A DNA stretch of 63,335 nt, filler included, from Thraustochytrium aureum (Eukaryota), in NCBI GenBank assembly GCA_012862495.1. It is 6 parts of 3 records of this genome, joined end to end, with 100 filler letters (N's around TTAATTAATTAA, not from the genome) between each part and the next. Parts side by side here need not be neighbours in the genome. Positions count along the whole stretch, not along the records: positions 13,587 to 39,608 come from BLSG01000098.1; 5 more parts are not named here. The stretch is one strand, 5' to 3'. Positions 503-63,335 of the stretch are shown one piece after another (position 1 is the stretch's first letter; the number at the start of each line of letters is the position of its first letter). The translations under genes and the position numbers were made by a program. The notes beneath the pieces are model-generated. The model was given only the letters and a program-made list of their open reading frames with translations, was not told where the DNA came from and ran no database searches.

Positions 503-3500
503 ATGTGGGCTGGCTGGCGGTCAGGTGGGCGGGCGGCGGCTCTGCGGCGCCTCCCTGCTCGATGGCCGCACCAGGCGCTCCACAAACCCTTGGCCGCGAC
601 GCTGGATCGGTGCGTGGCGCCCGGAGACGCGCGCGCGCTGGCGTGCGCTTCAGCGTCGGAGGAGTCGAGCGTGCTGGGAAGCCTTTCGGTTTGGGTCAAA
701 GGCTCGAAGAACAGCCGCAGACGGCGGTTCGAGTCTGGCAGGCTCGCCCCGCTTGCGGACGGCGCGGTGGTGGCCTGGGACGGCGACTCCGTCGTGCTGA
801 CCACAGCATGCTCGGACAGGTACGGAGGCGACGCGTCCGGGGAGTCGATGCTGACGATCGACTTTCGGAGCAAGGGCGCAGCGGCCGGGCAGATCCCGTC
901 GCACGTTCTCCGGCGCGAGCTTGGCCCGCGCGAGTCTGACATTATGGTACGTTGAGCGAGGTCTGGTGGGACGATGGCCGCAGGCCTCGGCGTTGACTTG
1001 CATGACACTGAGCTGACCCATCGCTTGCTGGTCGAATCTCGCAGACTGCCCGGTTGATCGATCGAATCATCCGCCCGCTGTTCATAGGGGCCCGCACCAC
1101 TCCGACGCAGGTGATCAGCACCACGCTAGCGTTCGACCCCGATTCTGACGTCCCCGTGTCGAGTGTAAATTCGGCTTCACTTGCAATGATGATGGCCCGA
1201 TCAATCCCGTTTGATGGCCCGGTCGGGTGCGTGCGCGTGAGCTGCAAGGCCGAGGCGACCAACGCCAGCACGCCGGCAAAGAGCCTCCAATTTTACGAGT
1301 CGGAGGCGTTTCAGAGCCCTGTCGAGATGAAGGCCAAGGGTGTTTGGTTCAGCGTCGTCCTTTCCGCGACCAAGAAAGGCATAATTACCTTTGATCTGCT
1401 TTGCACGAAGCCCGTTGCAGCGGAGCATGTCAAGGCAGCCATCGCTTTCGCGACCAAGGCCGTCCGGCCGCTACTGGATGCTCAAGACGAGTTTATTGAC
1501 AAGCTCTCCGCGGCACGGCAAAGCCGCCAGCGCCAGTGGGTGCCCATTTCCAAGGGCCTCGAGATCGAGGAGAACCTGAAGAGGACCGTTTACGAGCAGG
1601 CGATGCGCGCACTGACGTCATCCGGAGAGACCTACATGACCTTGGCGGACGGGATAAAGCCCGACCTCGTGGACCAGCTTTTGTTGGCCGGGGCCTCGTC
1701 CGCGGCAAGCGGGCGGGCGGGCGCGCCAACCAGCCGCGCCGACTCCATCAAGAGTGGCCTGCAAGAGGCGATGGACGAGAGCGCCGCCATACCTGACGAG
1801 ATCGAGTCCGGCGAAAGCGACCTCGAGGAGAGTCCCAAGGGGGCTTCGGCCACACGTTCCGCGGCGGCGGGCAAGACGTCGCCTCCTGCCGAGGCAAGCG
1901 CCGCTGGCGAAGAAGCTGCGGCGGCGGCGCTTAGCGCGGCCGAGCCTAGCTCCCGCAAGAAGAGCGACGCCTGGAAATGGCGCGACCCTTCCATCCTCCG
2001 CAACCGCTTCTCGGCAAGGAATATGGCGGACGAGATTCTGCGCACCGTGGTGCGGGACTTGCTGTCGAGCGGGCGGCGCGCTGACGGTCGCTCCAATACC
2101 GACGTGCGCCCGCTCGGGTCGCAGCTCGGGCTCCTCCCCACGGTGCACGGCTCGGCCATCTCGACGCGGGGCAGGACAAGCGTTCTGTCGACCGTGACGC
2201 TTGGGCGGCTCAAGGACGCGCAGACCCTGGCGCCGTACTGTGGCCCGATGTTCACGAAACGCCTCATGGCCCAGTTTGAGTCGCCTCCTTACGGGTCAGG
2301 AAAGACCGGCCGTATAGGTCTTAGTCGGCGCATGGTCAGCCACGGCGACCTGGTCGAAAACGCACTGTTCCCCGTGATCCCTGAGAACGAGGAGCTGCCG
2401 TACGCGATTCGCATCACGAATGAGGCGACTAGCGCAGACGGTGGCGCGTCGATGGCGGCCATCTGTGCGAGCTCGCTGGCCTTGAGAAGCGCGGGCGTGC
2501 CGATGCGCGAGACCGTGGCGGGCGTCTCAGTGAGCCTGGTGAATAGGGTTGTGGATGCCTCGAGCTCGGACGAGGCGAGTCGCCGTTCCAAAGCCAAGTC
2601 CGGCGCAAAATCTGCCAAGGGGCCCGCCCCGAGCCAGCTGCTGTGCGACCCAGACTTTTATGAGGACACGTTCAGCAACATGCAGCTGCGCTGCGCCTCG
2701 ACGCGCACAGGGATCACGGCGCTTCAGGTCGACACGCATTGCGGCTCAAGCGGCGTCTCGGAGGAGACCCTGTTCGAGGCTATCGCGCATGCAGTGACCG
2801 CTAACGCCGCAATCCTCGACAAGATGGACGGCGACGTCGCGGCGCAGTACGGCTCGAGCTCTCCTGCCCAGCTGGCCGATCACATACCGCGCTCGCACAG
2901 GCTAAAGCTCAACGAAGGCCTCGCAAGGCGCCTCATCGGGGCCGGCGGGACAGTGGTGCGCTCGCTCGAGGCCGACCTCGGCGTCAACGTGGACATTGAC
3001 GCGGAGGCAGACACGGTTTGGGTCTATTCGCGCGACCAAAACGGGCTGGACTCTGCCCTCGAGGCAATAGAGACGATTCTCTGGGAACCAAACCCTGGCG
3101 AGATCTTCATGGACTGCGAGGTTACAGAGCTCCGCCATTACGGCGCGATCGTGTCCTTCTCAGCGCTCAAGCGCGAGGGCATGGTGCACATCAGCGAGCT
3201 CGACGTCATGCGTGTGGACCGCGTGGAAAATGTCGTGAAAGTGGGCGNNNNNNNNNNNNNNNNNNNNNNNNNNNNNNNNNNNNNNNNNNNNNNNNNNNNN
3301 NNNNNNNNNNNNNNNNNNNNNNNNNNNNNNNNNNNNNNNNNNNNNNNNNNNNNNNNNNNNNNNNNNNNNNNNNNNNNNNNNNNNNNNNNNNNNNNNNNNN
3401 NNNNNNNNNNNNNNNNNNNNNNNNNNNNNNNNNNNNNNNNNNNNNNNNNNNNNNNNNNNNNNNNNNNNNNNNNNNNNNNNNNNNNNNNNNNNNNNNNNNN

Positions 3501-3960
3501 NNNNNNNNNNNNNNNNNNNNNNNNNNNNNNNNNNNNNNNNNNNNNNNNNNNNNNNNNNNNNNNNNNNNNNNNNNNNNNNNNNNNNNNNNNNNNNNNNNNN
3601 NNNNNNNNNNNNNNNNNNNNNNNNNNNNNNNNNNNNNNNNNNNNNNAAAAGCCGGTTGCTCGCAAGCCCAAGCTGCCGTCGGAGCGACCCAAGAACGCCG
3701 CTTACACGGCCTTTCTGGGCGGTAACCAGGACGACGGCGCTGACGCAGCCGATGACAGCGGCGCTAGCGTGCACGAGGACCGTCGCCCGCGCGCGCGGAC
3801 GTCGCGAGTTCGTGAGAGCCCGCCAGCGCCGCCCCGCCTCCGCCGGACCCGGAGGAGAGCGAGGACCAGTGGCTCTACAGGCGGTGGCTTGCGTGGCGAA
3901 AGTCCAACTCGACTGCTGCAAAGTCCTAATCTGATGAAGCTTCAAAGCTTCAACAACTAA
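503..3960 (+). CDS. PNPT1: Polyribonucleotide nucleotidyltransferase (PNPase)-like protein, probably mitochondrial; exons 503-946 and 1045-~3960, with an N gap at 3248-3646
   Basis: Splicing a GT-AG intron (947-1044, gctgac branch) gives RRELGPRESDIM|TARLIDRIIRPLF, matching RNase PH domain 1. Also RADGR, LPTVHGSAISTRGRT, RRMVSHG, KH (LIGAGGTVVRSL) and S1 (HYGAIV..EGMVHISEL). The N-terminus is Arg/Ala-rich and transit-peptide-like. The 3' end is uncertain. Confidence 0.9.
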
Positions 3961-5843
3961 AATCCGCGCGGCCGCGCTGGCGGTTTCCATTTCTTCTTCA
4001 ACTCTACCGGGTACCACGTCCACGTGAGTTCTGTAGCTCGCGCCTGGCCTGATACGTTCTGATGACGCCCGGAGCGATCGTTGATCCTCTTGATTGATCA
4101 AGATCAGGGTAAGGATCAAGAGCGCGCTGGCGTTTGGAGAGAGGTACTCCGGGTCACCAGCACTTTGCTCGAGCCACTTCTCGTCCACCGCCGTTCCAAA
4201 TAGCGTTCTTGACCTGCAGAGAGTCCGGCGGCGGCACGCTCAGCTGGCGCGCCTGCTGCCGCATTCAACCGCTCGCCGAGGCTCATTCATGAGGTCAGCC
4301 AGGCTGTGGCTGGCTCGCACGCACCCGCGCACTCTGGGCTCTGGGGAGGTGGAGAGGACCAGAATCAGCTACCAGCCCCTCCCTGCACTGCACTGAGAGC
4401 GCGCGGCAGCGGCGGGTGCCCTTGCCCCTGGGCGCCCGCACCAAAGCCACCGCAGGGGCAGAGGCACGGCGCAAAACAAAAAAGGATTTCTTCTCTGCCT
4501 TGATTTGTTCGCTCCAGCGACCCTCAGCGGGAGTTCTCGTCTGGCATCACGGGCCCCCATGGCCCCACGAGCGCCGGAGATTAAAAGAGCCGCAGATAAC
4601 GCGAAACGCTGCAAGGAGATAGGCCGAGTCCGCGATAGTTTAGCCAAGAGTTGGTATCTAAGCCCCTCGAGCCGTCCCCGATCGAAAAAAAGAAGAAAAA
4701 GAAAAAAAAAGCCATCTCCATCCACGGTTTCCCTTTCTGTTTTTCAACCCGGTTTGTCCACCCAGACGGTACTGCCCCTTTCCCCGCACCTCTACCGTGA
4801 ATATCGGTGCAAATATCCTACTAGATCCAGAAATAGAACGTAATATCATCTCCACGCTAATCCTCCGAGGTACGCAAACGAACCACAAGTCCCACTGTAC
4901 ACCACCGCCGGGGTACACTTCCGTGTGAAGGGCAGCACACGCTCGCAACGAGACGTGCTCAGCAGCGCAGGCGAGAGAGAGCGANNNNNNNNNNNNNNNN
5001 NNNNNNNNNNNNNNNNNNNNNNNNNNNNNNNNNNNNNNNNNNNNNNNNNNNNNNNNNNNNNNNNNNNNNNNNNNNNNNNNNNNNNNNNNNNNNNNNNNNN
5101 NNNNNNNNNNNNNNNNNNNNNNNNNNNNNNNNNNNNNNNNNNNNNNNNNNNNNNNNNNNNNNNNNNNNNNNNNNNNNNNNNNNNNNNNNNNNNNNNNNNN
5201 NNNNNNNNNNNNNNNNNNNNNNNNNNNNNNNNNNNNNNNNNNNNNNNNNNNNNNNNNNNNNNNNNNNNNNNNNNNNNNNNNNNNNNNNNNNNNNNNNNNN
5301 NNNNNNNNNNNNNNNNNNNNNNNNNNNNNNNNNNNNNNNNNNNNNNNNNNNNNNNNNNNNNNNNNNNNNNNNNNNNNNNNNNNNNNNNNNNNNNNNNNNN
5401 NNNNNNNNNNNNNNNNNNNNNNNNNNNNNNNNNNNNNNNNNNNNNNNNNNNNNNNNNNNNNNNNNNNNNNNNNNNNNNNNNNNNNNNNNNNNNNNNNNNN
5501 NNNNNNNNNNNNNNNNNNNNNNNNNNNNNNNNNNNNNNNNNNNNNNNNNNNNNNNNNNNNNNNNNNNNNNNNNNNNNNNNNNNNNNNNNNNNNNNNNNNN
5601 NNNNNGTGGCTGAGCGGAGGCCGCGGGGCTGCGTGCGGTGCGTGCTTGCTGCGGCCGACGGCCAAGGCCGGCGAGGACGGAGAGCGGGAAACGCGGAGCT
5701 GGTCGGGTTTCCGGCGCGGCGTGCGAGTGGCTGACTTGGCGCTGCTGGACGCGGCGAAGGCGGAACACGGCGGGAAGGCGCCGCCTGGCGGCGGGAAAGG
5801 CCCCGCGTGCTTGCGGGAAAGCGTGCGGGAGGGCTTGCGAGAA

Positions 5844-7058
5844 ATGGGGTGCTGCGCAAGCGCGTCAAGCGCCAGTGGCGCGCCGCTGAGCGAGGCGAGC
5901 GACGGGGCACCAAAGCTGATGCACACAAACAGCATGCTCTTCCCGACGGACGCCATGAACGATGCGAAAAAGTCGCTGCGGCTGGAGAAACCCGTCGACG
6001 AAGCAAGCCACAGCGAAAGCGACGCCGACGACCCGCTCGGCATCCTCCTGGCGAGCGAAAACGGCTACGTGCTCGGGCACGAGGTAGAGTACGCTCAGGA
6101 AATGAGCGAGTCCCTCAAGGTCAAGATCGCCGTGGACGGCGGCAGCGCCCGGGCGGCCCGCGAGCTGCTGGTCGGCTACAAGACCCTGCAGGGGCGGGCC
6201 GCCTCGCCGCCCAGCAAACCCAACCAAGACAGCGTGGTGGTCTTCAAGCTGGAGGGCAAGCCGAACGTGGCGGTCTTTGGCGTGTTTGACGGGCACGGCC
6301 CGTTTGGCGAGCACGCGGCGCACTTTTGCCGCATGATGTTCCACAGGACGATGAAGGACGTGTTCGCCGAGCTCGGCGACGACGCAGCGCCCGAGGACGT
6401 GCTGCGGGAAACGATCGCGCGCGTTCACCACGACTTTATCCACACCATCCCTGCCAAGAGCGGCGTGGACCCCCTCGTGAGCGGAACGACCCTCATCGTC
6501 GCGCTCGTCAAGGACGACGTGGTCTATGTAGCCAACGTCGGCGACTCGCGCTGCATCCTGGGCCAGCGCTCCGCCGAGGACGCCAGCAAGGCGCAGGTCG
6601 TGGCCATGTCGGACGACCACAAGCCAGAGCGGGACTCGGAACGCGCGCGCATCGAGCAGACCGAGGCAGTCCTCATGTCCGAGGGCCAGCTGCGGGGCGG
6701 GTCCAAGGTCGAAGGCAAGATGTACATCTGCCGCGCCAAGGGCGGGCAGATCTCGTACGGCGTGCTCTTCACGCGCTCCATCGGCGACCTCGACGCGCAC
6801 AACTACCTGGGCGTCTCCGCAGAGCCCGAGTTCAAGCACTTCGCTCTCGAGGCGGATCTCGAGCAGTACCTCGTGCTGGCCTCGGACGGGATCTGGGACC
6901 AAATGTCAAACGAGCAGGTCATGCGCAAGGTTTTCCAGCTCGGCGACCCGCTCAAGGCCAGCGAGCAAATCGCGGCAATTGCGCGCGACCGCTGGGACAA
7001 CGACCGCATGCACTCGCGCCGCGACGACATCACAGTCTGCGTGGTCAAGCTCAACTGA
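5844..7058 (+). CDS. Protein phosphatase 2C (PPM family) with N-terminal MGCC acylation motif
   Basis: Motifs NQD, VFDGHG, SGTT, ANVGDSR, DHKP, TRSIGD, LASDGIWD and DDITV; in-frame ATG at 5844 gives MGCCAS. Confidence 0.95.
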   Translation: MGCCASASSASGAPLSEASDGAPKLMHTNSMLFPTDAMNDAKKSLRLEKPVDEASHSESDADDPLGILLASENGYVLGHEVEYAQEMSESLKVKIAVDGGSARAARELLVGYKTLQGRAASPPSKPNQDSVVVFKLEGKPNVAVFGVFDGHGPFGEHAAHFCRMMFHRTMKDVFAELGDDAAPEDVLRETIARVHHDFIHTIPAKSGVDPLVSGTTLIVALVKDDVVYVANVGDSRCILGQRSAEDASKAQVVAMSDDHKPERDSERARIEQTEAVLMSEGQLRGGSKVEGKMYICRAKGGQISYGVLFTRSIGDLDAHNYLGVSAEPEFKHFALEADLEQYLVLASDGIWDQMSNEQVMRKVFQLGDPLKASEQIAAIARDRWDNDRMHSRRDDITVCVVKLN

Positions 7059-12978: not shown

Positions 12979-13530
12979 TGTGGCCCAACTTTCGTCGCCG
13001 TCCACCCACTCGCTGCTCGCCAATTGGCGGGCCGACGGCAGCCCGAGCCCTCTCTGGACGCAAGCCGCGGCGAGCCTTTCCTGCAAGTGATCGTTCACTC
13101 CGCGCGCTGGCGAGACTTAGGATGCAGGCAGCTTGGCGAGAGAGCGAGGGCGGCGTTGCGCATGTGCCGACATGGAGTCTGTGCAAGTACGAGTGTCTGG
13201 AACAAGTGCTGCGTCAATCAAAAAGGTGGGCGGCACCCTCTCAGGCTCCCAAGCTGTGTGCTCTGCTCGCGCATTCTCTCGAGCGTGCCTGCTCTGAGCG
13301 TGCTTCTGCAGGCCGACGGCGCGGTGCCTGGTCCGAAGCCAGCCTCTGCGAGGCGCTTTGTTGAGCCCTTCTGAGGTTGGTCGCCCAGAATGGCTCCTCT
13401 CGTGTTGGCCCTCGAAGTACCTACATGTCGTGGCGCGACGCGGAACGCTGGCCGGGCGAGCTCGAAGGGTGAACCCACAGACCTTGNNNNNNNNNNNNNN
13501 NNNNNNNNNNNNNNNNNNNNNNNNNNNNNN

Positions 13531-13542
13531 TTAATTAATTAA
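13531..13542. other. Artificial contig linker TTAATTAATTAA flanked by Ns
   Basis: Six-frame stop linker inside an N block; recurs five times in the window. Confidence 0.97.
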
Positions 13543-13586
13543 NNNNNNNNNNNNNNNNNNNNNNNNNNNNNNNNNNNNNNNNNNNN

Positions 13587-14200
13587 CGAGGTTGCTTGCC
13601 GGCCCCAGTGGCAGCGTCAGCGTGCAGGACCATCAATAATGCGGACGAGGTAGCTTGCCAGCCCCAGCGGCAGCGTCTCCAACACGAAGATCTCGCTCAG
13701 CTTGGCCTGGTCGGCCGGCCGCCGAAAGCGCATGCAGGGGGCGCTGCTTCATGGGGAGGGTCTTGGCCTCGCTCATGACAGCCGGACCCGCCATAAACGC
13801 CTCGAAGTTCTCGCGCTCTTGTTGAAAACGGCGTTGTCGCCGATCTGGCCGTTCCAGGTGCGCTGGTTGGTCATGCCCTCTGACGCAGCCAGAGGCAGTG
13901 ATCGACCTGGCTTGTGTTTTGCAGCGAGGCAAGACTCTCGCCTGCAGTCGCCGCCGCCGCGTGTACACTTCTGTGAGCAGTACGACGACAACGACATCGG
14001 CACCTTCGACCGCGTCCGCCATGGCCTCACCGAGGGCACCATCGAGTGTGTTCTGGCGGTCGAACCAGACCTCCCAGCCCTCCTCGCGCTACATCCAGGC
14101 CGCGGCCTCGGCCACAACCGCTTTGGTCGACCGACCGAGAATGACCGGCTTGCCGTCGCACGAGACGATGATCTTTTCTGGCGCGCCGCCATCGTTCCCT
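13587..14200 (-). pseudogene. Degraded TIR-NACHT paralogue (in-frame TAG at 14089-14091 plus frameshifts), truncated by the contig edge
   Basis: Conceptual translation KIIVSCDG..VVAEAAAWM*REEGWEVWFD..AMADAVEGADVVVVVLLTEVY / DCRRE..LPLAASEGMTNQRTWNGQIG aligns by eye with the TIR domain at 14761. A Walker A remnant GDAAAGAGK lies near 13650. Confidence 0.75.
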
Positions 14201-14760: not shown

Positions 14761-17700
14761 ATGGCCGAACAGGATGGCGAGCTGATGGTCACGATTTTGT
14801 TCGAGGCCTCGTCGGTCGTGGACGGACGGCCTGTCGAGGAGGTCGTAGAAGAAATTGCGAGCTGGCTCGCACGCAACACCGACTGGAGCGTCTGGTTCGA
14901 CGACCGCAAGCCGGCGGCAACCGCTGACCGTGCCGCAACTGCTGACCGTGCGGGGGCCGCCGCGGAGGCTATCGACGACGCGGACGTCATCCTCGCCCTT
15001 TTGACGGACGAGTACGTGCGCAAGGTTAATGCCGGCGCCGAAGACGACCCGTGCAAGCGCGAGTTCAGATACGCAGCCGAGCACAGGGCTGGCCGGATTG
15101 TACCCCTCGTTGCCTCAGATGCGCTCGCCGACCAGCGCAACTGGGACGGCCTGCTCGGACTCGTTCTGGGCCAGGAGATGTTCCAAACGATAAATGCCAA
15201 CTTTGCAGATTCCATGGCGAGCTTGGCAGCCATTATCGAGGGCAAAGCCAGGCACCAAGCCGAGCGACCGCGTGCGGCCTCGGCCGTGGGCGAACAGGCC
15301 AAGCAGCCGGAGTTCTTCACGCTGCCACCCAGTTTAGCCCTTTGCTCACGGCACGGCTCAAAGCCAGCGAGTTCCACGATGGCACGCGCGAGGCGGCCAT
15401 CAAGCACGTTCGAACGTGGTACAAGGACGACCTGCCCAAGAAGAAAAGCCCGGTACTTGGTGTTTATCGGTCCCGCCGGGGTGCGGGCAAGTCGGCCCTG
15501 ATGGGCAAGCTCTGCCAGGAAGCGGCTGTCAGCACGCGCANNNNNNNNNNNNNNNNNNNNNNNNNNNNNNNNNNNNNNNNNNNNNNNNNNNNNNNNNNNN
15601 NNNNNNNNNNCCCAGGCCTAACGAGGAGCTGCGCAAGCTTGACGGGGATGAATTGGACAAGGTCACAGACGTGGGTGCCCTGTTCCAGGCTGTGCTTGCG
15701 GGGCCCTGCAGCGCGGTCGACGCGCCACAGCAGAGCGTCGTGATCGTCTTGGATGCTCTCGACGAGGTCTCTCCTGCTGACAAAGGCGAGTTCATCAGCA
15801 TGATCAAGACCGAGTGGACCAAGCGCGCGCCAGACTGGCTCGGCTTGCTCGTCTCTTCCCGGCCTGAGGACCCGATCCAAAGCGAGCTGGCCGAGTTTCA
15901 GCCGCGCGTCTTTCAGCTCAGCGACGCGGAGAACGAAGCGGACGTCAAGCGGTTTCTGCGCGCCATGCTGGAAAGGTACTTGAGGGATCCCGAACGCGAG
16001 CTCGAAGATGCTGTAGAGCTTCTCGCGGACCGCGCCAAGGGCTTGTTCTTGTACGCGCGGTTCATTGGAGAGCAGCTCGCAGAGTGCGACCGCAGGGCAG
16101 TGACTTTAAAGCAGCTCCTGGAGGACAACGACGCTTTCCCGGAAGGCCTCGACGAAGCGTACCGCACCAACTTGTTGCGGTTTCTCGAGGGCGCGCTCGA
16201 GGGCGACTACGACAAGTATCAGGGCCTGTTCGGCAGCATGGTCGTCGCCCGCGAGCCGCTGCCGTTACGAGTCGTCGGGCGGCTGCTTGGCTTGGATGAA
16301 GCGTCTCTGGGGCGCTTTCTCCGCAAAGCGAGCGCCTTGCTGGACGTCCGCGAGGACTCGGTCGCGTTTATTCACAAGTCGATGAGCGATTTCCTGCTTG
16401 ACGATGAGCGCGCGGCTCAGATCAACGCGCGGGGCAAACCGTACCACGGCCATCGCTTCGCCGTGGACGCCAGCCATGGCCACGCACTCCTCGCGCAAGC
16501 GCTTCAAGCCGAATCGAACGCAACCTCGCGGTTCGCGGCTCGCCACCTGCTGTTTCACCTCCTCAAGACCGAGCAGGAGGGGGCAGTTGCGTCAAAGCTG
16601 CTCGACCTCGCCTGGCTCCTCGTGGTCGCCGAGGCCGGCGCTGCGGCACAGCTCGTGCGGGACGTCCAACTTGCGCAAGGCCTCGGAGCAGACGCCAAGC
16701 TAGCTGCACGTGCTGTTGAGATGGCTGTACAGGCAGTCAGCCGCGACTGGCGTGAGCTTCCTGGCCAACTCCTCGGCCACCTCCCCGAAGCGCACCCACT
16801 CGTCATGCAAGCTTTCGCGTTTCGCCACCCTGATTTTGCCTGGTTGCGGCCAGTATGCGCAGCGCAGGCGCAGGCAGGCGACCCTCTGCGCAAGACTCTG
16901 AATGGGCACGCATTCATCGTGAGCAGCGTAGCCGTTTCACACGACGGCCAGCGCATTGTGTCTGGGAGCTTGGACTACACAGTGCGCGTCTGGGACGCCA
17001 ACACGAGCAAAGTACTGCGCTGCCTCCAAGGCCACATGGTTTCCGTAGACGCTGTAGCCATCTCGCGGAGCGGTCAGCGAATCGTGTCTGGCGGTGGCGA
17101 CTCGACCGTGCGAGTGTGGGNNNNNNNNNNNNNNNNNNNNNNNNNNNNNNNNNNNNNNNNNNNNNNNNNNNNNNNNNNNNNNNNNNNNNNNNNNNNNNNN
17201 NNNNNNNNNNNNNNNNNNNNNNNNNNNNNNNNNNNNNNNNNNNNNNNNNNNNNNNNNNNNNNNNNNNNNNNNNNNNNNNNNNNNNNNNNNNNNNNNNNNN
17301 NNNNNNNNNNNNNNNNNNNNNNNNNNNNNNNNNNNNNNNNNNNNNNNNNNNNNNNNNNNNNGAGACGACCAGCGGATTGTATCTGGCAGCGAAGACGGAA
17401 CCGTACGCGTCTGGGACGCGAACACTGGCCAAGAGCTGGAACGCTTCGAGGGGCACACGCTTGGTGTTAAAGCTGTGGCTGTCTCTCGGGACGGCTTGCG
17501 GATAGTCTCCGGCAGTGATGACGCGACAGTGCGAGTGTGGGACTCCAGCACTGGCCAGCTGGAGCGGCGCCTTGTCGGGCACGCGGCGGCTGTCTGGGCC
17601 GTTGCCGTTTCCCATGACGGCAAGCAGATCGTGTCTGGCAGCCTGGACAAAACCATACGGGTCTGGGACATGAGCACCGGCCAGGTTCTACGGCAGCTGG

Positions 17701-18680
17701 AGGGCCACACAGAAATCGTGTCCGCAGTGGCGCTTTCGCGCGACGGCCAGCGGATTGTCTCGGGCAGCTACGACAAAACTATCCGGGTCTGGGACGCCCA
17801 CACCGGCCAGGAGCTTGCCCGCCTCGAAGGGCACGTCTTACCCGTTTGCGCGGTGGCCCTTTCCAGGGACGGCCAGCGAATAATCTCGGGCAGCAGCGAC
17901 AGCACCGTGCGTATCTGGAACGCCGAAAACCGCATCCAGAAACCGCACGGCCGCCAAGGCCACTCGGATTTGGTGACTGCGGTGGTTCTGACGCGTGACG
18001 GCGAGCGAATCGTGTCCGGGAGCTTAGATCAGACCTTGCGGGTTTGGAACGCCAAAGCGGGCGGCGAGCTTTTCCGTCTGCAAGGTCACACCGACTACGT
18101 AAGGGCATTGGCCCTCTCGCGTGACGACCTGCGGCTCGTGTCCGCCAGCCGTGACAAGACCTTGCGAGTTTGGGACCTCAACACCGGCCGGGAGCTGCGC
18201 TGCCTCCAAGGGCACTCTGAGATCGTATCTGCTGTGGCGCTTTCGTCCGACGACCAGCAAATTGTGTCCGGCAGCGGGGACAAATCGGTGCGCGTCTGGG
18301 ACGCCACGACCGGCAAGCTGCTCCATGTTTTCCATGGACACGACGTCGCGGTTAGCGATGTGGCCCTATCGCGCGGCGGGCAGCAAGTCGTATCCCGCGA
18401 CTATAGTGGCGCCGTTCTGGTCTGGTCGATGGGTTCGGGCCAGGTCCTACAGGATGTGAACGGCGAGGTCGTATTTGACAAGCGCCGACAAGGCCAGCCG
18501 AAGCTGACGAACGGCAGCAGCACAATGTCGATCATGTGCGATGACGGGAGTCTTTCAGCTGGTTTCACATGCGACGCGCGTATCGAGGCATGCGCAGGGG
18601 CTGTGGACGGGTCGTTCGTGGCATTTTTCGACATTTCGCACCGGCCTTGCGTTTTGGAGCTTGTGCGGCGAAAGATGTAG
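14761..18680 (+). CDS. TIR-NACHT-WD40 STAND/NLR-like protein (HET-E/NWD-like); two gaps, apparent frameshifts near 15330 and 15460-15480
   Basis: TIR_2-like N-terminus (WSVWFD..AIDDADVILALLTDEY..PCKREF..RIVPLV). Walker A reconstructs as VFIGPAGAGKS, Walker B is VVIVLDALDE, followed by LLVSSRP, GLFLYA and FIHKSMSDFL. At least 11 visible GH..WD repeats of 42 aa. Confidence 0.9.
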
Positions 18681-39608: not shown

Positions 39609-39652
39609 NNNNNNNNNNNNNNNNNNNNNNNNNNNNNNNNNNNNNNNNNNNN

Positions 39653-39664
39653 TTAATTAATTAA
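39653..39664. other. Artificial contig linker
   Basis: TTAATTAATTAA in an N block. Confidence 0.97.
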
Positions 39665-40503
39665 NNNNNNNNNNNNNNNNNNNNNNNNNNNNNNNNNNNN
39701 NNNNNNNNGCGAAGCCCTGCAAGCTCGCAGAGTCCACGCGCGGATCGGCCGCGGTCCTGCTCGAGCCTGCTCTTCGCTCTGAAGCCGCGAGCGCCCAAGC
39801 TCTTGCTCCTGCTAGTATTGCTCCTGGTGCTCGCGCTCGCGCTCGCGCTCGGGCCGAGGGACTCGAGCAAGGGCGTCTGGGCGTCCGGCGCATCGCTTTG
39901 GGGAAAAAAAAACAAAAAAAACTCGTTTCGAAGCCGTGCTGTGTCCGACTTGGAGACCATCATGATGGAGTTGACCCCGTTGGACCTTTGCCTTGCGGAT
40001 TGGGTGCGTGCTGGACAGGCAGGATTGGTGCCCGTGGTCTGCAGGCGGGTGGGTCGTGGCGGGCGCGGGCTGGTGAGATCAGTGTGGTTCGGCAGTGCCG
40101 TTGAGATGTTTTTTTGGTTTGAAAAGTTGCGCGTTTTCACACTTGTCCAAAGCGTGGCGCATCAACACGCCGACAGCATCGAGTACCAAGTCGTGCTCAT
40201 GCCAAATAGAGCACATCAAGCTCACGTTCTTCGACAACAAAACACTTCTTTCCATGGCGCAGAAGGCCTCGTCGCTTGGGTTCAGAAGGGCGGAACACAG
40301 CGGTCCTGGGGTACTCGACCACATGCCAACGACGGATCGATTCCACCATGCTCAGATCGTTCCCGCAAAGTGGATTCTGTTTCCGCGGTCTGATCTGGTC
40401 TTCTTGGTCGGACGAGGAGGCACTTGATGGAGCTGACAGTGTCACTGCACAACGCCACGACAGCACTTCGATTCTCGTTGTTGTGTTGGCGAAAGGCGGA
40501 ATC

Positions 40504-48075: not shown

Positions 48076-48119
48076 NNNNNNNNNNNNNNNNNNNNNNNNN
48101 NNNNNNNNNNNNNNNNNNN

Positions 48120-48131
48120 TTAATTAATTAA
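48120..48131. other. Artificial contig linker
   Basis: TTAATTAATTAA in an N block. Confidence 0.97.
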
Positions 48132-48234
48132 NNNNNNNNNNNNNNNNNNNNNNNNNNNNNNNNNNNNNNNNNNNNTTCCACTGTGCGGCTTCCGCGGCAT
48201 TCCTTTTGTTCTCCTCACATCCTCCACAGCAACT

Positions 48235-51922: not shown

Positions 51923-53922
51923 ATGGCGCAGATGCGGTTCGAGTACGCGGATGTCGGGCTGTATCGAGGCGGCTCGTGGGTCAAAGGCGTGGTCGCGTTG
52001 GAGCGAGCCAAGGACGGCACCAAGTGGGCCTTCGCCTTCGCTCCGGCGGAGAGCGTGAACGCCAAACATGCCCTGCAGGCCGACGGCGAGAGCGTCACGG
52101 ATATCGGCACTGGCGCCAAGGATGGCGAGTGGTTCCTGCGGCTGAGCGTGCCTGGGAAGAAGAAGCCGAAGAAATGCGTGTTCAACTTNNNNNNNNNNNN
52201 NNNNNNNNNNNNNNNNNNNNNNNNNNNNNNNNNNNNNNNNNNNNNNNNNNNNNNNNNNNNNNNNNNNNNNNNNNNNNNNAGGCGCGCCGAGCCCGGCCCT
52301 TAGCCCCGTCGCCAGCGCCGCAGCGCCACCAGCAGCGGCGCGGCCGGACGCAGCGCCATCCTCGAGCGCCGGCGGCACCTACTTTGCAAAGTATGGGCGA
52401 CCCGCGGAGGACGCCGGCGAGGTGAGCGAGGCGGTCGTAGGCGGGGCAACCGCCGTGGAGCGCAAGGCGCGCAAGAGCATGCTCGACGTGGATGACGAGC
52501 TCGCCGAGCTCTACAGGTCGGTGGTGCTGAGCGGGATCATGAGCGAGCAAGACTTTTGGGCAGCGCGCGAACTGCAGGTGGAGGAAGAGAAGACGGCGCT
52601 GCTGCAGCAGCGCGGCCTGAGCACTGGCCTTACGGCGGATGTGCACGCGAGCAAGACGGACCAAGAGAACGTGAGCTACGAGCTCACCAAGGAGCACATC
52701 CAGCGCATCTTCCTGGACCAGCCGCGCGTGTACGCAATTTACAAGGCCAAGGTGCCCGCGTCGCTGAGCGAGCTCGAATTCTGGCGCCTCTACTTGTCGA
52801 GCCGCTACTTTCACCAGAACCGCAACACGACCGCAGAGTTTCGGGCCAGCGAGCAGGCCCGCGCCGCCGCGGAGGTCTTCGGCCAATTCGACGACCCCGA
52901 CGACGACGAGCACGGGGGCGGCAGCAAGGTCACCTCGCTCAACAACAGAGCTTCGCGCCCGCGCGGCGTCCTGGTTGACCCCAACGTGGACCTCTTGTCC
53001 ACGCTCAATGACGACCCGCACGGAGCGGCGACCACGCTAGCGGGGGTCGGGATGGCCGCGCGGTCTGGGTATGGAATCGTTGTGCGCGACCCCGCCGAGC
53101 AGGCCAAGGACGCTGCCAACCGCGAGCGCCTGCTAAAGCTGGGGCGCAAGGTCACGATCGAAGAGGTGCGCCGGCTCGAGGAAAAGCCGCTCGAGTCCAT
53201 CCCGCTCCTGTCCAGGTACAACCGACACGCGTCGCTCGTGCTACCAAATGAGGAGCACAACCCGAACCGCGTGCAGCGGCGCATCGCGCGCATGGTCAAC
53301 GAAGAAAAGCGGGCAGAGGTTTTCCGCGACCTCGAGGCTTTCGGAGGCATGCGCCACGAGCCGCCGCCCATCCCGCTAGACCCTCCAGGGAAACAATTCG
53401 TACATGGCTGTTGGCGGCACGAAAGGGGCGCAGATCAAGCCCGCCGGAGGAGCCAGCGCCGCACTGGCCGCGTCGCTGGACCGCTGGTCGCCGACAAAGC
53501 TGCACAAGGTGATGCCCTCGTCCAAGACCGCGCTCGCAGTGCTAGACCACGTCACCAGCACCGCTGGCTCCTCGTCCCACGACCACGCCGCGCGCCTCGA
53601 AGACGTGGTCGAGCATGAGGAGCTCTTGCGCGTATCCCGCGCCGCCAACGAGCTTCGCCGGCACTTCTGGACCAGTTTTCCGCCGGCCCTGCGCGCCAAG
53701 GAGCCGCTCGAGGCCCAGCCGGCCTGGACACGGATGGAGGCCCTGGTGGACAAGCTGCTGGCGCTCGAGGCCCGGGTCCGCGAGTTTCGCGAGTACGCGC
53801 GTAACAGCGGTAACCGGGCCCTGGCCCACCTCCTGCTCGACCTCATGGACCAGCTCAAGAAGGCGACTGGCGACTTTGACAAGTTTAAGCGCATGCAGCT
53901 CAAGAAGCGCCAGCGCAAGTAG
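51923..53922 (+). CDS. GTF2H1: TFIIH subunit p62/Tfb1 (PH-like N-terminus, two BSD domains); gap and frameshifts
   Basis: LAELYRSVVLSGIMSEQDFW, LTKEHIQRIFLDQPRVYAIYKAKVP..LSELEFWRLYLSSRYF, RYNRHASLVL and NELRRHFWTSFP. Confidence 0.88.
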
Positions 53923-57915: not shown

Positions 57916-58734
57916 GATGCGAAACTGCACGGTATGGACGCGGCTCTGACCAGTGACGAGTGCGCTGACGAGTGGACGCTCGAGGGTGGCGGCGCGAGAA
58001 CAACGTCTGCCGCAAGTGGGGGCCGGGAGCAACGTTCTCCAACTCGAGTCGAGAACGCCAGCTTCTACAGACGTGGATGTCGTTTGCGTGGCGGGATGTG
58101 GAGTTCGACGCGGAAGAGCAAAGAAGCGCGGCTGACGGTGTGAGCCTTTCGCGAACACGCAGTTGTACCGGACGCGGCTCGAGCGCTTGGCCGATCGTCG
58201 AGTTCGACACGGCGCAGTCACTGGTGCTCGATGCCTCTAGAGGTACTGAAGCAGCGTACAACAAGACAACGGCCAAGGAATCGAGGTCGGCGAGAGCTCA
58301 GCCCGCGCTATGACGCGCGCGCCCGATGAACTGATGAAAAGGGATTATGCCAATCTCAAGGCTTGACCTTGTTCATTCGCTAGGGTACTCTACGTCTTCG
58401 TTGGGACCGGCGACGCAAATCAATCTGCGCATGAGCAACTCGATATGAGAAATTCCTCCGTCAGAGTCACCACGGCCCGGTGGCCCGCAACGCCCAGACG
58501 CACTTGAAACGGCCAGGCGAACCTGCAATCCTCGACGCACTTGAAATAGGCGATTGTGTCCCCGCCCTCGGTCGCGCGGAGGAAGACAGGGTCTTGGCAC
58601 CAACTTCTGTTCCCGAGGTCGCACGGGATGCGGAAGGCTGGGCGCACAGGGTTTGCACGCGTCTCGAGGACATTCTCTACATCTCGCGAGNNNNNNNNNN
58701 NNNNNNNNNNNNNNNNNNNNNNNNNNNNNNNNNN

Positions 58735-58746
58735 TTAATTAATTAA
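58735..58746. other. Artificial contig linker
   Basis: TTAATTAATTAA in an N block. Confidence 0.97.
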
Positions 58747-58790
58747 NNNNNNNNNNNNNNNNNNNNNNNNNNNNNNNNNNNNNNNNNNNN

Positions 58791-61700
58791 CCCGGTTTCC
58801 ATCGTCGTGGGGCTTTCCGAGTCGTTCTCAATCCCGAATGTGAGCGACTGCCTCGAGGTCGTAGACTTTGACGCACTTCCTGGCGTTGCAGAGCGAGAGT
58901 CGGCTGTGCAGGTTAAAGAGGCCGCTGGTGACCGCGTGGTTGACCTGGAGGAGAGCGCTGCACTCGCTCTAATCTCCAATCTCGCAGCCCAGGCGCTGCG
59001 CGGCGGCGGGCTGGATCGCACGCTCCGCAGGCTGGCAAACTCAACTGGGTCGTTCCTGGCCGACGCCTTCCAGTTTGATCACGAGGGCGACGAGACGTCC
59101 GTTTCGCTCGTTCTACCGCTGCAGGCCCTCGGCCTGCGATATGCGAGCAGCGCGCTGATTCCTGGCCTGGTCGTCGATGCCGGACTCGTTCGTGTTCGCG
59201 GCGTCAACAAGCTCGCGCGGAGCATCGACATCCTCAAGCCCGTTGGCACCTTCACGACGCGGCACAGGGTGGAGTTTGATCGTGTTGCGCCGCTCAACGT
59301 GACAGTGGAGGCCTTTGTCGAGATGGATCGCTCGGCAGTGGACGGCCCTGGGGCGACGGGCAAAGTGCGGGAGGAGATCCAGATCAACATGCTGCTCGAG
59401 GGGCTGATGGGCGAGCTGGACCTGATTACGGCGCTCAACCCTGCGAGCCTCGGCACCAAGTCGCTTGCGCACGTGATCGCGGTTGAAGCGGACCAGTCGT
59501 TTCGGCTGGCTGACTCTGCGGCGGACTGCCTGGTGAGCAGCTTTTACCCGGGCGGGCTGTCCATTAGCAAGCTTCAAGTCCAGCTCAACGCGGTGTCTGG
59601 CGTCCGCGTGACCAGCGCCACGGGTGAGCTGCTCACGCCACCTATGGAGGCGCTCGTCGTGGCCGTTGCCGAGCTCATCGTCGACTTTTACAAGGACGCG
59701 GTGGCATCCCTGTGCCAGAACTGTTTGCGCGACTACATCAACTCGTTCGTGGCGGATCTGCAGCGCATCGCGTCGTGCCCAGACCTGCGCAGCATTCCGG
59801 CGCCGCCGCTGGCCAAGGAGGACGAGGTGTTTCGCTTCTCCACGTCGCCGGATTGGCTTTGGGTCCAGAGCATCTGGGACGAGTTTGTAGTAGCCGACGG
59901 CTATGCAAACTTGAACCAGGTCGCAGCGAGTGCTCTCGGCGGGGCCACCTTTTTCGATTCTTCCGCGGGAGACCAGCTGAGCGTCGAAGGCGTCCCGTTG
60001 GTGTATTATGGGCGATCCTACGGGTCAGTTGACGTTGCGGTAGCAAACCTCAGACTCGTCGGCGACCTGGCAGTGCAGTCCCTCCTGCTGGGGACGGTGA
60101 ACAGGACCGACCCATACGCGACCCGGAGCGAGATAGCGCTGGCTGGCCCAGCAGGCCTGCAGGTTGACCTTACGCTCAACCTGCAGGGCCTCTTCCCAGC
60201 AACCCCGAATGCGCAGAACGAGCTCCGCATCAAGGTCGACGTCGAGGGGCTTCGTTTTGGCTTGGGGCTTTTCCTGCAGGTCAACATTACCAAGGCAATG
60301 GCGCTCGAGTTTGCTTCGTTCGACTCGGTTGAGAAGGCCGCCTGTCTATTGATCCCGGTTGAGGCCATGCGCCCTTTCGACGTGGTGTTTGAGCTAGCGG
60401 AGGCTGGCCTCGAGGTAGAGTGCCTTTCGCGCTGCGACCTTGGGATGCTGACGCAGCTGGGCACGGCGGGGCTCGAGAGCGAGAACCGCGGCGAGGTGGC
60501 GGCCCTTGCGACGCGGTCGTTCGCGTTCCTCGTCGAGTATCTGGGCACGATCGAAGCGCAGAGCCTGCTTGACAGCCAGGTCGCGCTGGCCGAACAGTCC
60601 TGCAGCACTCTGCTCGGGTACTTGGATTCTCTGTTTCCAGAGCCCGCTGGGGCCGAAGCGGACGTGGCGCGCACGCTGGGCCTTTCCTTGGCCGGGGCCA
60701 CGGCCGGACTGGCGTTGCTCTTTGCGGTTGCGATCTACCCGCTGCACCGCCGCAAGCGCGACCAGGTAATCATCGGTCACCTGGAGGACGGCCAGCGCGG
60801 CAAGTCGATTGTGCCGATGGTCGACAACGCGGTCCAGTCGCTCTTCGCCCGGTCGACAACTCGTCCGTGGGTCAAGTTTGTCTTGGCGGTCTTGCCGCTG
60901 TGCTCGCTCGCCATGCTTGCTCTGGCCGTGATAACCTCGACGATTATGAACGTCACGATCCAGGTTCGCCTCCTCGGGGAAGACGCCGTCGTATTCGACG
61001 CGATCCCAAGCGATATGAGTCTGCTGCTGAACAAGATCTGGCATGACATTAGCCCAGTCCTCGCGATCGTGCTCGGGGCCGCCACCGTCCTCGTGCCGGG
61101 CGTAGCGGCGCTGCTTCTCGTGGCCGCCTGGGTCACGCCGCCTACGGTGCTGCCAGCGGCGGCTCGCCGCAGCGTGTTGGTGGGCGTCGAGCGCATTATC
61201 AAGCTGGCGGTGGCGCTCGTGCCGGTGCAGGCAGGCCTCCTTGGAGCGCTCGTCACGGAAGTGTCTGCGTCGGACTATGCCCCGCTCGCGTTCCTGAGTC
61301 CTGACCTCATGTCGCTGCGGATCTCTGTGGCGGCAGACACAGGGCTGTTACTCATGATCTTGGGCGCTGGCCTCACACTGGCCTCTGCCCAGGCGATGCT
61401 CTACGTGCATGACCAGGCCCTGGCCCCGAAGGCCAACCGCCGGCTGACTCAGGTGTCTGTTGCAAAGTCGGTCGTCGCGAAGCGCCGTGTGGCGCACCAC
61501 GAGTTTGCGGTGTTAGACAAGAGCAGCAGCCAAGTTTGCGTGGCCCCAGCTGCCAGCCTCATCGTTGGCGCGACGGCGGTCGTGTCTGGGCTCGTGCTGC
61601 TCGTGTCGATCTTTGTTCCGGTGATCCGCTTTGAGACGAATGGGGTGCCGGGATCCTGTTTCGCGAGGTGAGCCAGGGGTCCCCGACGATCCCGGCCGAC

Positions 61701-62026: not shown

Positions 62027-62070
62027 NNNNNNNNNNNNNNNNNNNNNNNNNNNNNNNNNNNNNNNNNNNN

Positions 62071-62082
62071 TTAATTAATTAA
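62071..62082. other. Artificial contig linker
   Basis: TTAATTAATTAA in an N block. Confidence 0.97.
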
Positions 62083-62127
62083 NNNNNNNNNNNNNNNNNN
62101 NNNNNNNNNNNNNNNNNNNNNNNNNNA

Positions 62128-63335
62128 GCTCCCCGAAACGACACGGTCGCCGTCGGGCGAGAAGGCCACGGAATTGACCTCAGATTCGTGTCCCTCGAGC
62201 CGCCGGAGTTCTTGCCCCGATTTGGAATCCCAGATTCGGACTGTCCTGTCCCAGCCCCCTGAGACGATGCGGTCGTCGTCGCGCGAGAGGGCCATGGCCA
62301 AGACACCGGATGTGTGTCCCTCGAGCCGCCTGAGGTCCTGCACCGATTTCGCGTCCCAGATACGGACGGTATTGTCTTTGCTCGCCGAAACGATGCGGTC
62401 GCCGTCGCGCGAGAGGGCCACGGCCGTAACAAACGCGGTGTGCCCATCGAGCCGCCGGAGCTCCTGCCCCAACTTTACGGTCCAGATACGGATGGACTTG
62501 TCCCTGCTTCCCGAAACGATGCAGTCGCCATCGCGCGAAAAGGCCACCCCCACGACGCTACGATTGTGTCCCTCGAGACGCCGTAGCTCTTGCCCTGATG
62601 TCCCGTCCCAGATCCGGACGGTCGCGTCGTCACTCCCTGAAACGATACGGGCGCCGTCGCGCGAGAGCGCCACGGCCAAGACATTCTTGGTGTGTCCCTC
62701 AAGCACCCGGAGCTCCTTGCCCGAATTGGCGTCCCAGATACGGACAGTCTTGTCGTCGCTCCCTGAAACGATGCGGTCGCCTTCGCGCGAGAGGGTCACG
62801 GAATTAACATCAGCTGTGTGTCCCTCGAGCAGCCAAAGCTCGCGCCCCGATTTCGCGTCCCAGATACGGACGGTCTTGTCCTCGCTCCCCGATACAATAC
62901 GGTTGCCATCGTGCGAGAGAGCCACGGCCAATACAAAACCGGTGTGTCCCTCGAGCCGGCGGAGCTCCTGCCCCGACCTGACTTCCCAGATCCGGACGGT
63001 CTTGTCGTAGCTTCCCGAAATTATGCGGTCACCTTCGCGCGAGAAAGCCACGCCACCTACCCAAGCGGTGTGGCCCTCGAGCCGCCCGAGTTCTAGCCCC
63101 GAATTGGCATCCCAGATGCGGACGGTATTGTCGTAGCTTCCCGATACGATACGGTCGCCGTCGCGCGAGAGGGCCACGGCACAGACCCAATTAGTGTGTC
63201 CCTGGAGGATCTTGCGCAGTGGGTCGCTTGCTGCCGTGAGCGTGGCCTGCACCGGGCGAAGCCAGCTAAAGTCGTGGTGGCGGAACGAGCGCGCTTGAGC
63301 ACCAGCGGGTGCTCCTCGGGGAGCCGGCCGATGAG
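62128..63335 (-). CDS. Partial NACHT-WD40 family paralogue: nine near-identical 126-nt WD40 repeats (the last truncated)
   Basis: The linker LIGRLPEEHPLV..FRHHDFSWLRPVQATLTAASDPLRKILQGH matches LLGHLPEAHPLV..FRHPDFAWLRPVCAAQAQAGDPLRKTLNGH of the gene at 14761; 42-aa GH..WD repeats follow. Confidence 0.9.

Follow-up and report, generated by a model that had tools for sequence, protein, structure and literature searches.

Does a TIR-bearing, NLR-like gene of Thraustochytrium aureum cleave NAD+ through its own TIR domain, or does it sense on behalf of a partner that does? The question is raised by a stretch of 63,335 nucleotides, filler included, from assembly GCA_012862495.1 (the window), in which positions 14,761 to 18,680 encode a protein with an N-terminal TIR domain, a central NACHT domain and a C-terminal array of WD40 repeats. 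An earlier note on this DNA had proposed this architecture and had taken the intact catalytic glutamate of the TIR as a sign of a ligand-triggered NADase or cell-death receptor. The architecture is borne out by profile, structural and homology comparisons, and the TIR keeps the glutamate while lacking other conserved parts of the NAD+ pocket. The gene belongs to a protist family with several copies and may well encode a sensor-type NLR that depends on a partner with a complete catalytic site, a tentative reading that draws on analogy with better known receptors.

Four sequencing runs (X1 to X4) were compared with the window. Runs X2 and X3 come from the same study, so that X1, X2 and X3 represent two studies and X1, X2 and X4 represent three; X1 is possibly not independent of the window sequence. 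Summed run depth peaks at the TIR and NACHT stretches, and is not taken as a measure of copy number.

The TIR head: fold and NAD+ pocket

14761..15240, plus strand: TIR domain of the TIR_2 family with a SARM1-like fold, beginning at the ATG at 14761 (Pfam and structure alignment)
14785..14808, plus strand: βA strand and AA loop, reading MVTILFEA, without F-x-S-[Y/H] (no indel in the X1, X2 and X4 contigs)
14917..14952, plus strand: 18-bp tandem duplication (16 of 18 bases alike) in place of the BB-loop consensus (spanned gap-free by X1 only)
15061..15063, plus strand: Glu101, at the TIR catalytic glutamate position, in C-x-x-E (PCKRE; alignment)

The N-terminal 190 residues (window 14761-15330) match the Pfam TIR_2 profile with an E value of 3.7e-8 and a score of 34.3 bits, above the cut-off of 28. 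The match spans profile positions 10-93 of 122, leaving the first strand unmatched. Language-model neighbours of the N-terminus are TIR_2 clusters (best 0.95), and an AlphaFold2 model of the TIR from a 7-row alignment reaches a predicted local distance difference test score (pLDDT) of 81, compared to only 43 for the single-sequence fold. In VIA-align the top match of this model is the TIR of SARM1 (Z 15.3, root-mean-square deviation 2.5 over 134 residues), with model residues 7-160 against SARM1 561-700. Foldseek places a TIR-APAZ protein at first rank (TM 0.67). The TIR fold that had been proposed for the N-terminus is thus recovered by structure alignment. At the sequence level the domain is 33% identical to the TIR of P0049 and 30% to that of P0020, two full-length relatives described below. 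A PDB sequence search with the TIR head returned no TIR, and word-index searches with it gave nothing new (0 of 7995 candidates, with 327 others yielding the query only).

The PCKRE motif is present with its glutamate codon at the position previously assigned. This residue, E101, lies in helix αC; among 45 other distinct TIR rows, 41 also have Glu in this alignment column.

The earlier note missed that the motif F-x-S-[Y/H] is missing from the βA strand. This motif occurs in 38 of 39 canonical TIR rows, all of which also carry C-x-x-E: it is found in 4 of 4 clade members and in 34 of 35 more distant rows, many of which are closely related to one another and hence not independent. The exception, L015, is N-terminally cut. 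Among six degenerate TIRs of the clade, none has the motif, two have the Glu, and all have an intact Walker A. In the comparison with 45 other rows, the window TIR is alone in having C-x-x-E without F-x-S-[Y/H]. The βA register differs between sequence alignments, and the motif emerges from none of them. Judging from a constant structural offset from the starts of the aligned ranges, T11, L13, F14 and E15 would stand opposite SARM1 F565, S567, Y568 and R569. Because X1, X2 and X4 match the window at this strand, the missing motif is not an assembly error. An alternative upstream exon encoding βA was considered and discounted, since the model forms βA from residues 9-13 and the same three runs match the window.

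The BB loop is altered as well. It retains D47 and has no Gly at the consensus column, and residues 48-61 are predicted to be disordered (pLDDT below 50). It has been reported that the activity of SARM1 is reduced by Y568A and, in the BB loop, by D594A and G601P (PMC8266388), and that the TeTIR of TEP1 requires F902 (bioRxiv 10.64898/2026.09.21.753143), which would occupy βA. A screen of Glu-bearing TIRs describes a cyclic ADP-ribose (ADPR) product from 4 of 29 unicellular-eukaryote TIRs, a count that under-represents makers of plain ADPR; in the same report one oomycete TIR was active, and the TIRs of TLR2, IL-1R9 and IL-1R10 were inactive despite the Glu (bioRxiv 10.64898/2026.04.20.719644). 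The TIR head has lost conserved pocket residues, and cutting NAD+ by itself is unlikely to be its role. With the motif missing, few positives in the screen and inactive TIRs that bear the Glu, the NADase activity that had been deduced from the glutamate is poorly supported.

The NACHT domain and intactness of the gene

15330..15335, plus strand: apparent frameshift with one base missing (X2 and X3 have one extra base behind 15332)
15450..15500, plus strand: Walker A region, with VFIGPAG in one frame and GKS in the other (compensated pair of shifts; outside run coverage from 15455)
15541..15610, no strand: scaffold gap within the NACHT domain (bridged by none of runs X1-X4; the relatives are longer here than 70 bases would allow)
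15611..16900, plus strand: NACHT core with Walker B, helical and winged-helix domains (homology to P0049)
17121-17361, plus strand: run of 241 N in the WD40 region (replaced by 72 bases in X1, X2 and X3, in frame)

A real frameshift at ~15330 had been named as a mark of a pseudogene. The extra base in X2 and X3 restores the frame, so that the TIR frame runs on into the frame that precedes Walker A; the assembly very likely is in error at 15332. Likewise, the 72 in-frame bases complete WD40 repeat 3, and therefore the 241-N gap conceals no extra repeats in those strains. The interval 15455-15540, which includes a second shifted stretch at ~15459-15481, lies outside the coverage of all four runs. 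Here the frame over Walker A remains open yet reads RSRRGAGKS, with VFIGPAG in the adjacent frame, while GPAGxGKS is present in 9 of 12 close relatives. Two base-calling errors close to a contig end, one compensating the other, would explain this split.

Walker B reads VVIVLDALDE at 15737-15766. Both Walker motifs had been reported for the NACHT domain; Walker B stands, and the letters of Walker A are divided between two frames rather than found as one motif. The piece after the gap falls below the Pfam cut-offs (NPHP3_N 22.4 bits, NACHT 12.9 bits, with HTH_TANC1 likewise sub-cut-off). The same piece is 40% identical to the intact relative P0049 over 439 columns (E 1.6e-76), and the P0049 clade carries PF24883 and PF05729. 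The profile searches that the earlier note had proposed thus succeed for TIR_2 and for WD40 and fall short for NACHT. Window pieces gave no match to PADLOC models at an E value of 1e-5.

Strain differences bear on whether the gene is maintained. Synonymous changes make up 13 of the 23 coding differences listed, compared to an expected 25-31% (p 0.001-0.01; dN/dS about 0.25-0.35), and 4 of 5 of those listed in the TIR part; these are not the full set, and differences common to all runs may reflect window errors. No stop or indel is among the differences listed in the covered coding parts. This pattern supports purifying selection outside the variable WD40 sites, as far as sequence comparison can tell, and the gene is real and probably intact.

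The WD40 repeats as a proposed sensor

16901..18428, plus strand: 11 canonical 42-residue WD40 repeats (2 + 9 Pfam stretches)
18429..18680, plus strand: C-terminal tail, with the stop at 18678-18680 (nothing matched in Pfam up to an E value of 10)

At least 11 repeats had been counted before, and 11 canonical ones are found here. The tail behind them is probably made of degenerate propeller strands. Variation among repeats was assessed in 18 cores, of which the gene supplies 10 and a paralog at 62 kb in the window supplies 8. The repeat scaffold is almost fixed, and the most variable positions are 4, 5, 7, 23 and 25, of which the pairs 5/7 and 23/25 bracket an invariant Val and Asp. Positions 5, 7, 23 and 25 are equivalent to codons 7, 9, 25 and 27 of HET-E, and it has been reported that HET-E codons 7/9 and 25/27 are under selection and lie on the top face of the propeller (PMC1805685). 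At these four sites the ratio of nonsynonymous change (pN) to the overall synonymous value (pS) reaches 1.18 for the gene and 1.67 for the paralog, compared to ~0.3 elsewhere, all uncorrected and from non-independent pairs. The repeats of the gene are 59% alike on average and 77% at most over 10 cores (63% in DNA), while those of the paralog are 70% alike in protein and have the larger surplus of change at these four positions on the surface.

Paralogs and relatives

13587..14196, minus strand: decayed TIR paralog, head-to-head with the gene (TAG at 14089-14091, frame changed three times, cut off where the scaffold ends)
62128..63333, minus strand: WD40 part of another NACHT-WD40 family member, truncated where the window stops (other scaffold piece, same linker before the repeats)

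The second, decayed TIR on the opposite strand had also been missed. It matches in tblastn (E 2e-9; with P0049 E 2e-7) and carries a TIR_2 match on a 40-residue piece (E 1.1e-4), and its ATG lies 568 bp from that of the gene. It retains the βA Ser, the BB-loop Gly and C-x-x-E (DCRRE). The X1 contig is gap-free against the window over 13648-14079, and the frame changes are therefore probably real, with the reservation about the independence of X1 noted above; over the TAG the only coverage is a short piece that looks like a paralog. Further paralogs matching the TIR, linker and NACHT stretches are revealed by loose contig ends in X1-X4.

A tree of 63 NACHT rows (from 179) groups the window with P0049, P0154-P0156, P0100, P0160, P0020, P0076 and P0094, supported at 98 by the SH-like approximate likelihood ratio test (SH-aLRT). 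The placement of this clade among bacterial-type versus fungal-type NACHT rows is ambiguous in the tree; given that ambiguity, no claim is made for a bacterial origin by horizontal transfer, which was weighed as an option. N-termini differ within the clade, with canonical TIRs in P0049, P0020 and P0160, degenerate TIRs in P0154-P0159, and non-TIR heads in P0100 and P0094. P0020 is Hondaea fermentalgiana GBG30089.1 and P0049 is CAK9019244.1, labelled Durusdinium trenchii; databases describe them merely as WD40 or G-beta proteins. Hondaea fermentalgiana and the proteins with the Durusdinium label are the nearest relatives that bear a name, and the grouping with the Hondaea protein makes a labyrinthulomycete host probable. 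Both are intact and full-length and match the gene piece by piece in conserved order, being TIR-NACHT-WD40 proteins of the same clade whose TIRs, unlike that of the gene, retain F-x-S-H. A search of representative proteins and a Pfam scan of 31 relatives were dominated by WD40 repeat matches. No relative was confirmed among 161 pattern matches in viral contigs.

A metagenome locus, L008 (41% GC, with an intronless eukaryotic kinase gene adjacent), encodes a canonical TIR of the same type and was left out of the tree. Its positions 5002-5859 (plus strand) look eukaryote-like and hold a canonical TIR and a Walker A, with the open reading frame stopping shortly past Walker A.

The Durusdinium trenchii label is carried by at least seven clade members (P0154-P0159 and P0049), on short contigs with scant room for introns. 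One protein so labelled has 1180 residues on a 4679-base contig and is thus nearly intronless, and six have a degenerate TIR atop an intact NACHT-WD40. These members are suspected to come from a co-cultured protist, maybe a labyrinthulomycete; a literature search turned up no report that the Durusdinium assembly is contaminated.

Proposed mechanism and alternatives

That the gene encodes an NLR-like sensor of non-self, as had been proposed, is supported by its architecture, by a multi-copy family with a decayed copy, by variation at the HET-E sites and by purifying selection elsewhere. As a STAND protein, it would work as follows. A protein that is non-self or altered self would dock onto the variable face of the WD40 repeats, upon which the NACHT domain would exchange nucleotide and oligomerise. 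The clustered, remodelled TIR would then serve as a scaffold that recruits or activates a catalytically complete TIR member of the family, and this partner would cleave NAD+, leading to growth arrest or death. Ligand binding, nucleotide exchange, oligomerisation and the final outcome are modelled on the biology of HET-E, plant TNLs and STAND proteins, and the existence of a partner in this genome is the weakest step.

Several observations weigh against the sensor reading. C98, E101 and D47 are retained, as in active TIRs. The neighbouring TIR is decayed and lacks the βA Phe, so that no working executor lies here, and no canonical-TIR paralog was seen in the window or in the paralog fragments of the runs, which do not show βA. 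L008, the only eukaryote-like locus with flanks, has no divergent TIR. The repeat identity of 59% falls far short of the 85% of concerted HNWD repeats, the pN/pS values of the gene are near saturation as well as uncorrected, and the strain differences are the partial list described above.

The retained residues would instead fit a self-sufficient receptor, in which ligand-driven oligomerisation would switch on the NADase activity of its own TIR, whose pocket would be non-standard. SARM1 as the best structural match and the synonymous excess in the TIR part agree with this, as do the reports of strongly NAD+-cleaving TeTIR heads with a different pocket in NACHT-WD40 proteins (bioRxiv 10.64898/2026.09.21.753143) and of the active oomycete TIR. 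This possibility is nevertheless rather unlikely given the loss of a βA motif kept in nearly all canonical relatives, the low-complexity duplication in place of the BB loop and the small share of Glu-bearing protist TIRs with a cyclic product. A young pseudogene, or a copy with a dead P-loop in a birth-and-death family, would follow if the Walker A shifts or a break in the first gap were real; both places lie beyond the reach of the runs, the neighbouring TIR has already decayed, and this TIR has drifted from consensus. Both defects that the runs could reach (15332 and the 241-N gap) resolved to an open frame, however, no stop or indel is listed, strain differences show a synonymous excess, and the shifts sit in G runs at most 90 bases from a contig end, while three housekeeping-type genes of the window show like single frame changes by eye, all of which makes decay of this gene improbable. 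The least probable of these explanations is a non-immune scaffold or signalling protein like TEP1 or the NWD-type STAND proteins, with a vestigial TIR. Human TEP1, NWD1 and NWD2 have been described with a TIR-like/NACHT/WD40 layout (bioRxiv 10.64898/2026.09.21.753143), and the literature search found no immune phenotype for the clade; yet a family of several copies, one of them decayed, with N-termini that are exchanged or degenerate and variation concentrated at four surface sites, fits conflict genes better than a conserved scaffold, and the head is not a TeTIR.

The sensor reading has a bolder form, in which labyrinthulomycetes independently evolved plant-style sensor/executor NLR pairs from the TIR-NACHT-WD40 family, with this gene as the sensor and its neighbour as the relic of an executor. 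In such a pair the P-loop of the sensor would possibly be dispensable, and other clade members with degenerate TIRs might signal through a few enzymatic ones. This form is distinctly unlikely.

Comparison with known systems

The HNWD proteins of Podospora anserina (HET-E and HET-D, along with HET-R) share with the gene the effector-NACHT-WD40 order, the 42-residue repeats and the same four variable sites, and their family, like that of the gene, includes pseudogene members. Their HET domain is reported to be remotely TIR-like, and concerted fungal HNWD repeats are defined there by an 85% identity threshold (PMC4986451). In contrast, the head of the gene is TIR_2 rather than HET (only TIR_2 and a weak PHY match appear at E up to 0.1), its repeats are 59% alike compared to more than 85%, and its NACHT lies in its own clade apart from fungal-type rows.

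The architecture is less unusual than the earlier note implies, since TIR-NACHT-WD40 exists in bacteria and animals and amoebae have TeTIR-NACHT-WD40. TIR-NACHT-WD40/TPR proteins are common in bacteria, and TIR is among the listed effectors of bacterial NACHT (bNACHT) proteins (bioRxiv 10.1101/2022.07.19.500537). Examples such as P0014 (MBI3273105.1, Planctomycetes) and P0168 (Rubrivivax) resemble the gene in having TIR_2 with C-x-x-E, NACHT and a repeat sensor. They differ in that the bacterial set retains F-x-S-Y (34/35) and forms a separate branch with a NACHT identity to the window of about 22-31%. Bacterial SAM-TIR-NACHT-TPR and SAM-like-TIR-NACHT-WD40 proteins (P0162-P0171, P0014) are among the nearest prokaryotic relatives, and SAM precedes TIR in them as in SARM1.

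The TeTIR/DUF4062 STAND proteins TEP1, NWD1 and NWD2 also have a TIR-like head right before NACHT and WD40. Glu-dependent NADase activity has been reported for TEP1, and animal and amoebal TeTIR-NACHT-WD40 NADases exist (bioRxiv 10.64898/2026.09.21.753143). TeTIRs have 200-350 residues and an RWG loop, whereas the head of the gene has ~155 residues, no RWG and no DUF4062 match, with TIR_2 instead.

Plant paired TIR-NLRs (RRS1/RPS4, CHS3/CSA1 and CHS1/SOC3) resemble the locus in having head-to-head TIR-NTPase genes and a TIR depleted at the NAD+ site. The described marks of plant sensor TNLs are the head-to-head layout, a diverged TIR, loss of BB- and AA-loop motifs and a Glu that is sometimes kept (PMC13725568). 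The plant proteins have NB-ARC and LRR domains where the gene has NACHT and WD40; here the neighbour is decayed, and there is no integrated domain. The likeness is merely suggestive, because the neighbouring partner is dead and L008 lacks such a neighbour. By analogy, the gene would work like an HNWD or TNL receptor while standing outside the HNWD and TeTIR groups.

Other parts of the window

13487-13586, 39609-39708, 48076-48175, 58691-58790 and 62027-62126: artificial linkers (44 N, TTAATTAATTAA, 44 N)

These linkers join unrelated scaffolds, and gene neighbourhoods therefore stop at each of them. The piece that holds the gene is 13587-39608, where its neighbours encode TRAPPC8, a PDZ protease and poly(A) polymerase. 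Long open frames poor in introns, together with housekeeping genes of eukaryotic type, point to protist DNA. By eye, single apparent frame changes at ~21297 (TRAPPC8), ~53390 (a BSD-domain gene) and ~46670 (a third gene) suggest an indel-prone assembly. The BSD-domain gene near 53390 is presumably TFIIH p62-like. Elsewhere, a 959-residue open frame at 58792-61668 (plus strand) has membrane-like segments by look and matches nothing in Pfam up to an E value of 0.1, and a polynucleotide phosphorylase-like gene (RNase PH, KH and S1) with a long acidic low-complexity insert lies at 1012-3960 (plus strand).

Meaning for protist immunity

The immunity of unicellular marine eukaryotes is scarcely described. 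TIR and NACHT genes are reported to be induced in virus-resistant Gephyrocapsa (PMC12489294), and a literature search that covered mostly papers outside subscription found none on NLR-like or TIR genes in labyrinthulomycetes. The architecture has precedents in bacteria and, in the form of TeTIR, in animals; the protist clade itself is undescribed. For genome scans, this gene is a caution that a conserved TIR glutamate alone is no predictor of activity. Within the clade, one NACHT-WD40 chassis carries three states of the TIR: canonical in P0049, P0020 and L008, Glu-keeping with an altered pocket in this gene, and Glu-less in P0157-P0159. This makes the clade a natural test set for whether a protist splits sensing from execution, as plants do. 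If the pair reading were true, a marine eukaryote of a single cell would possess a network of NLRs.

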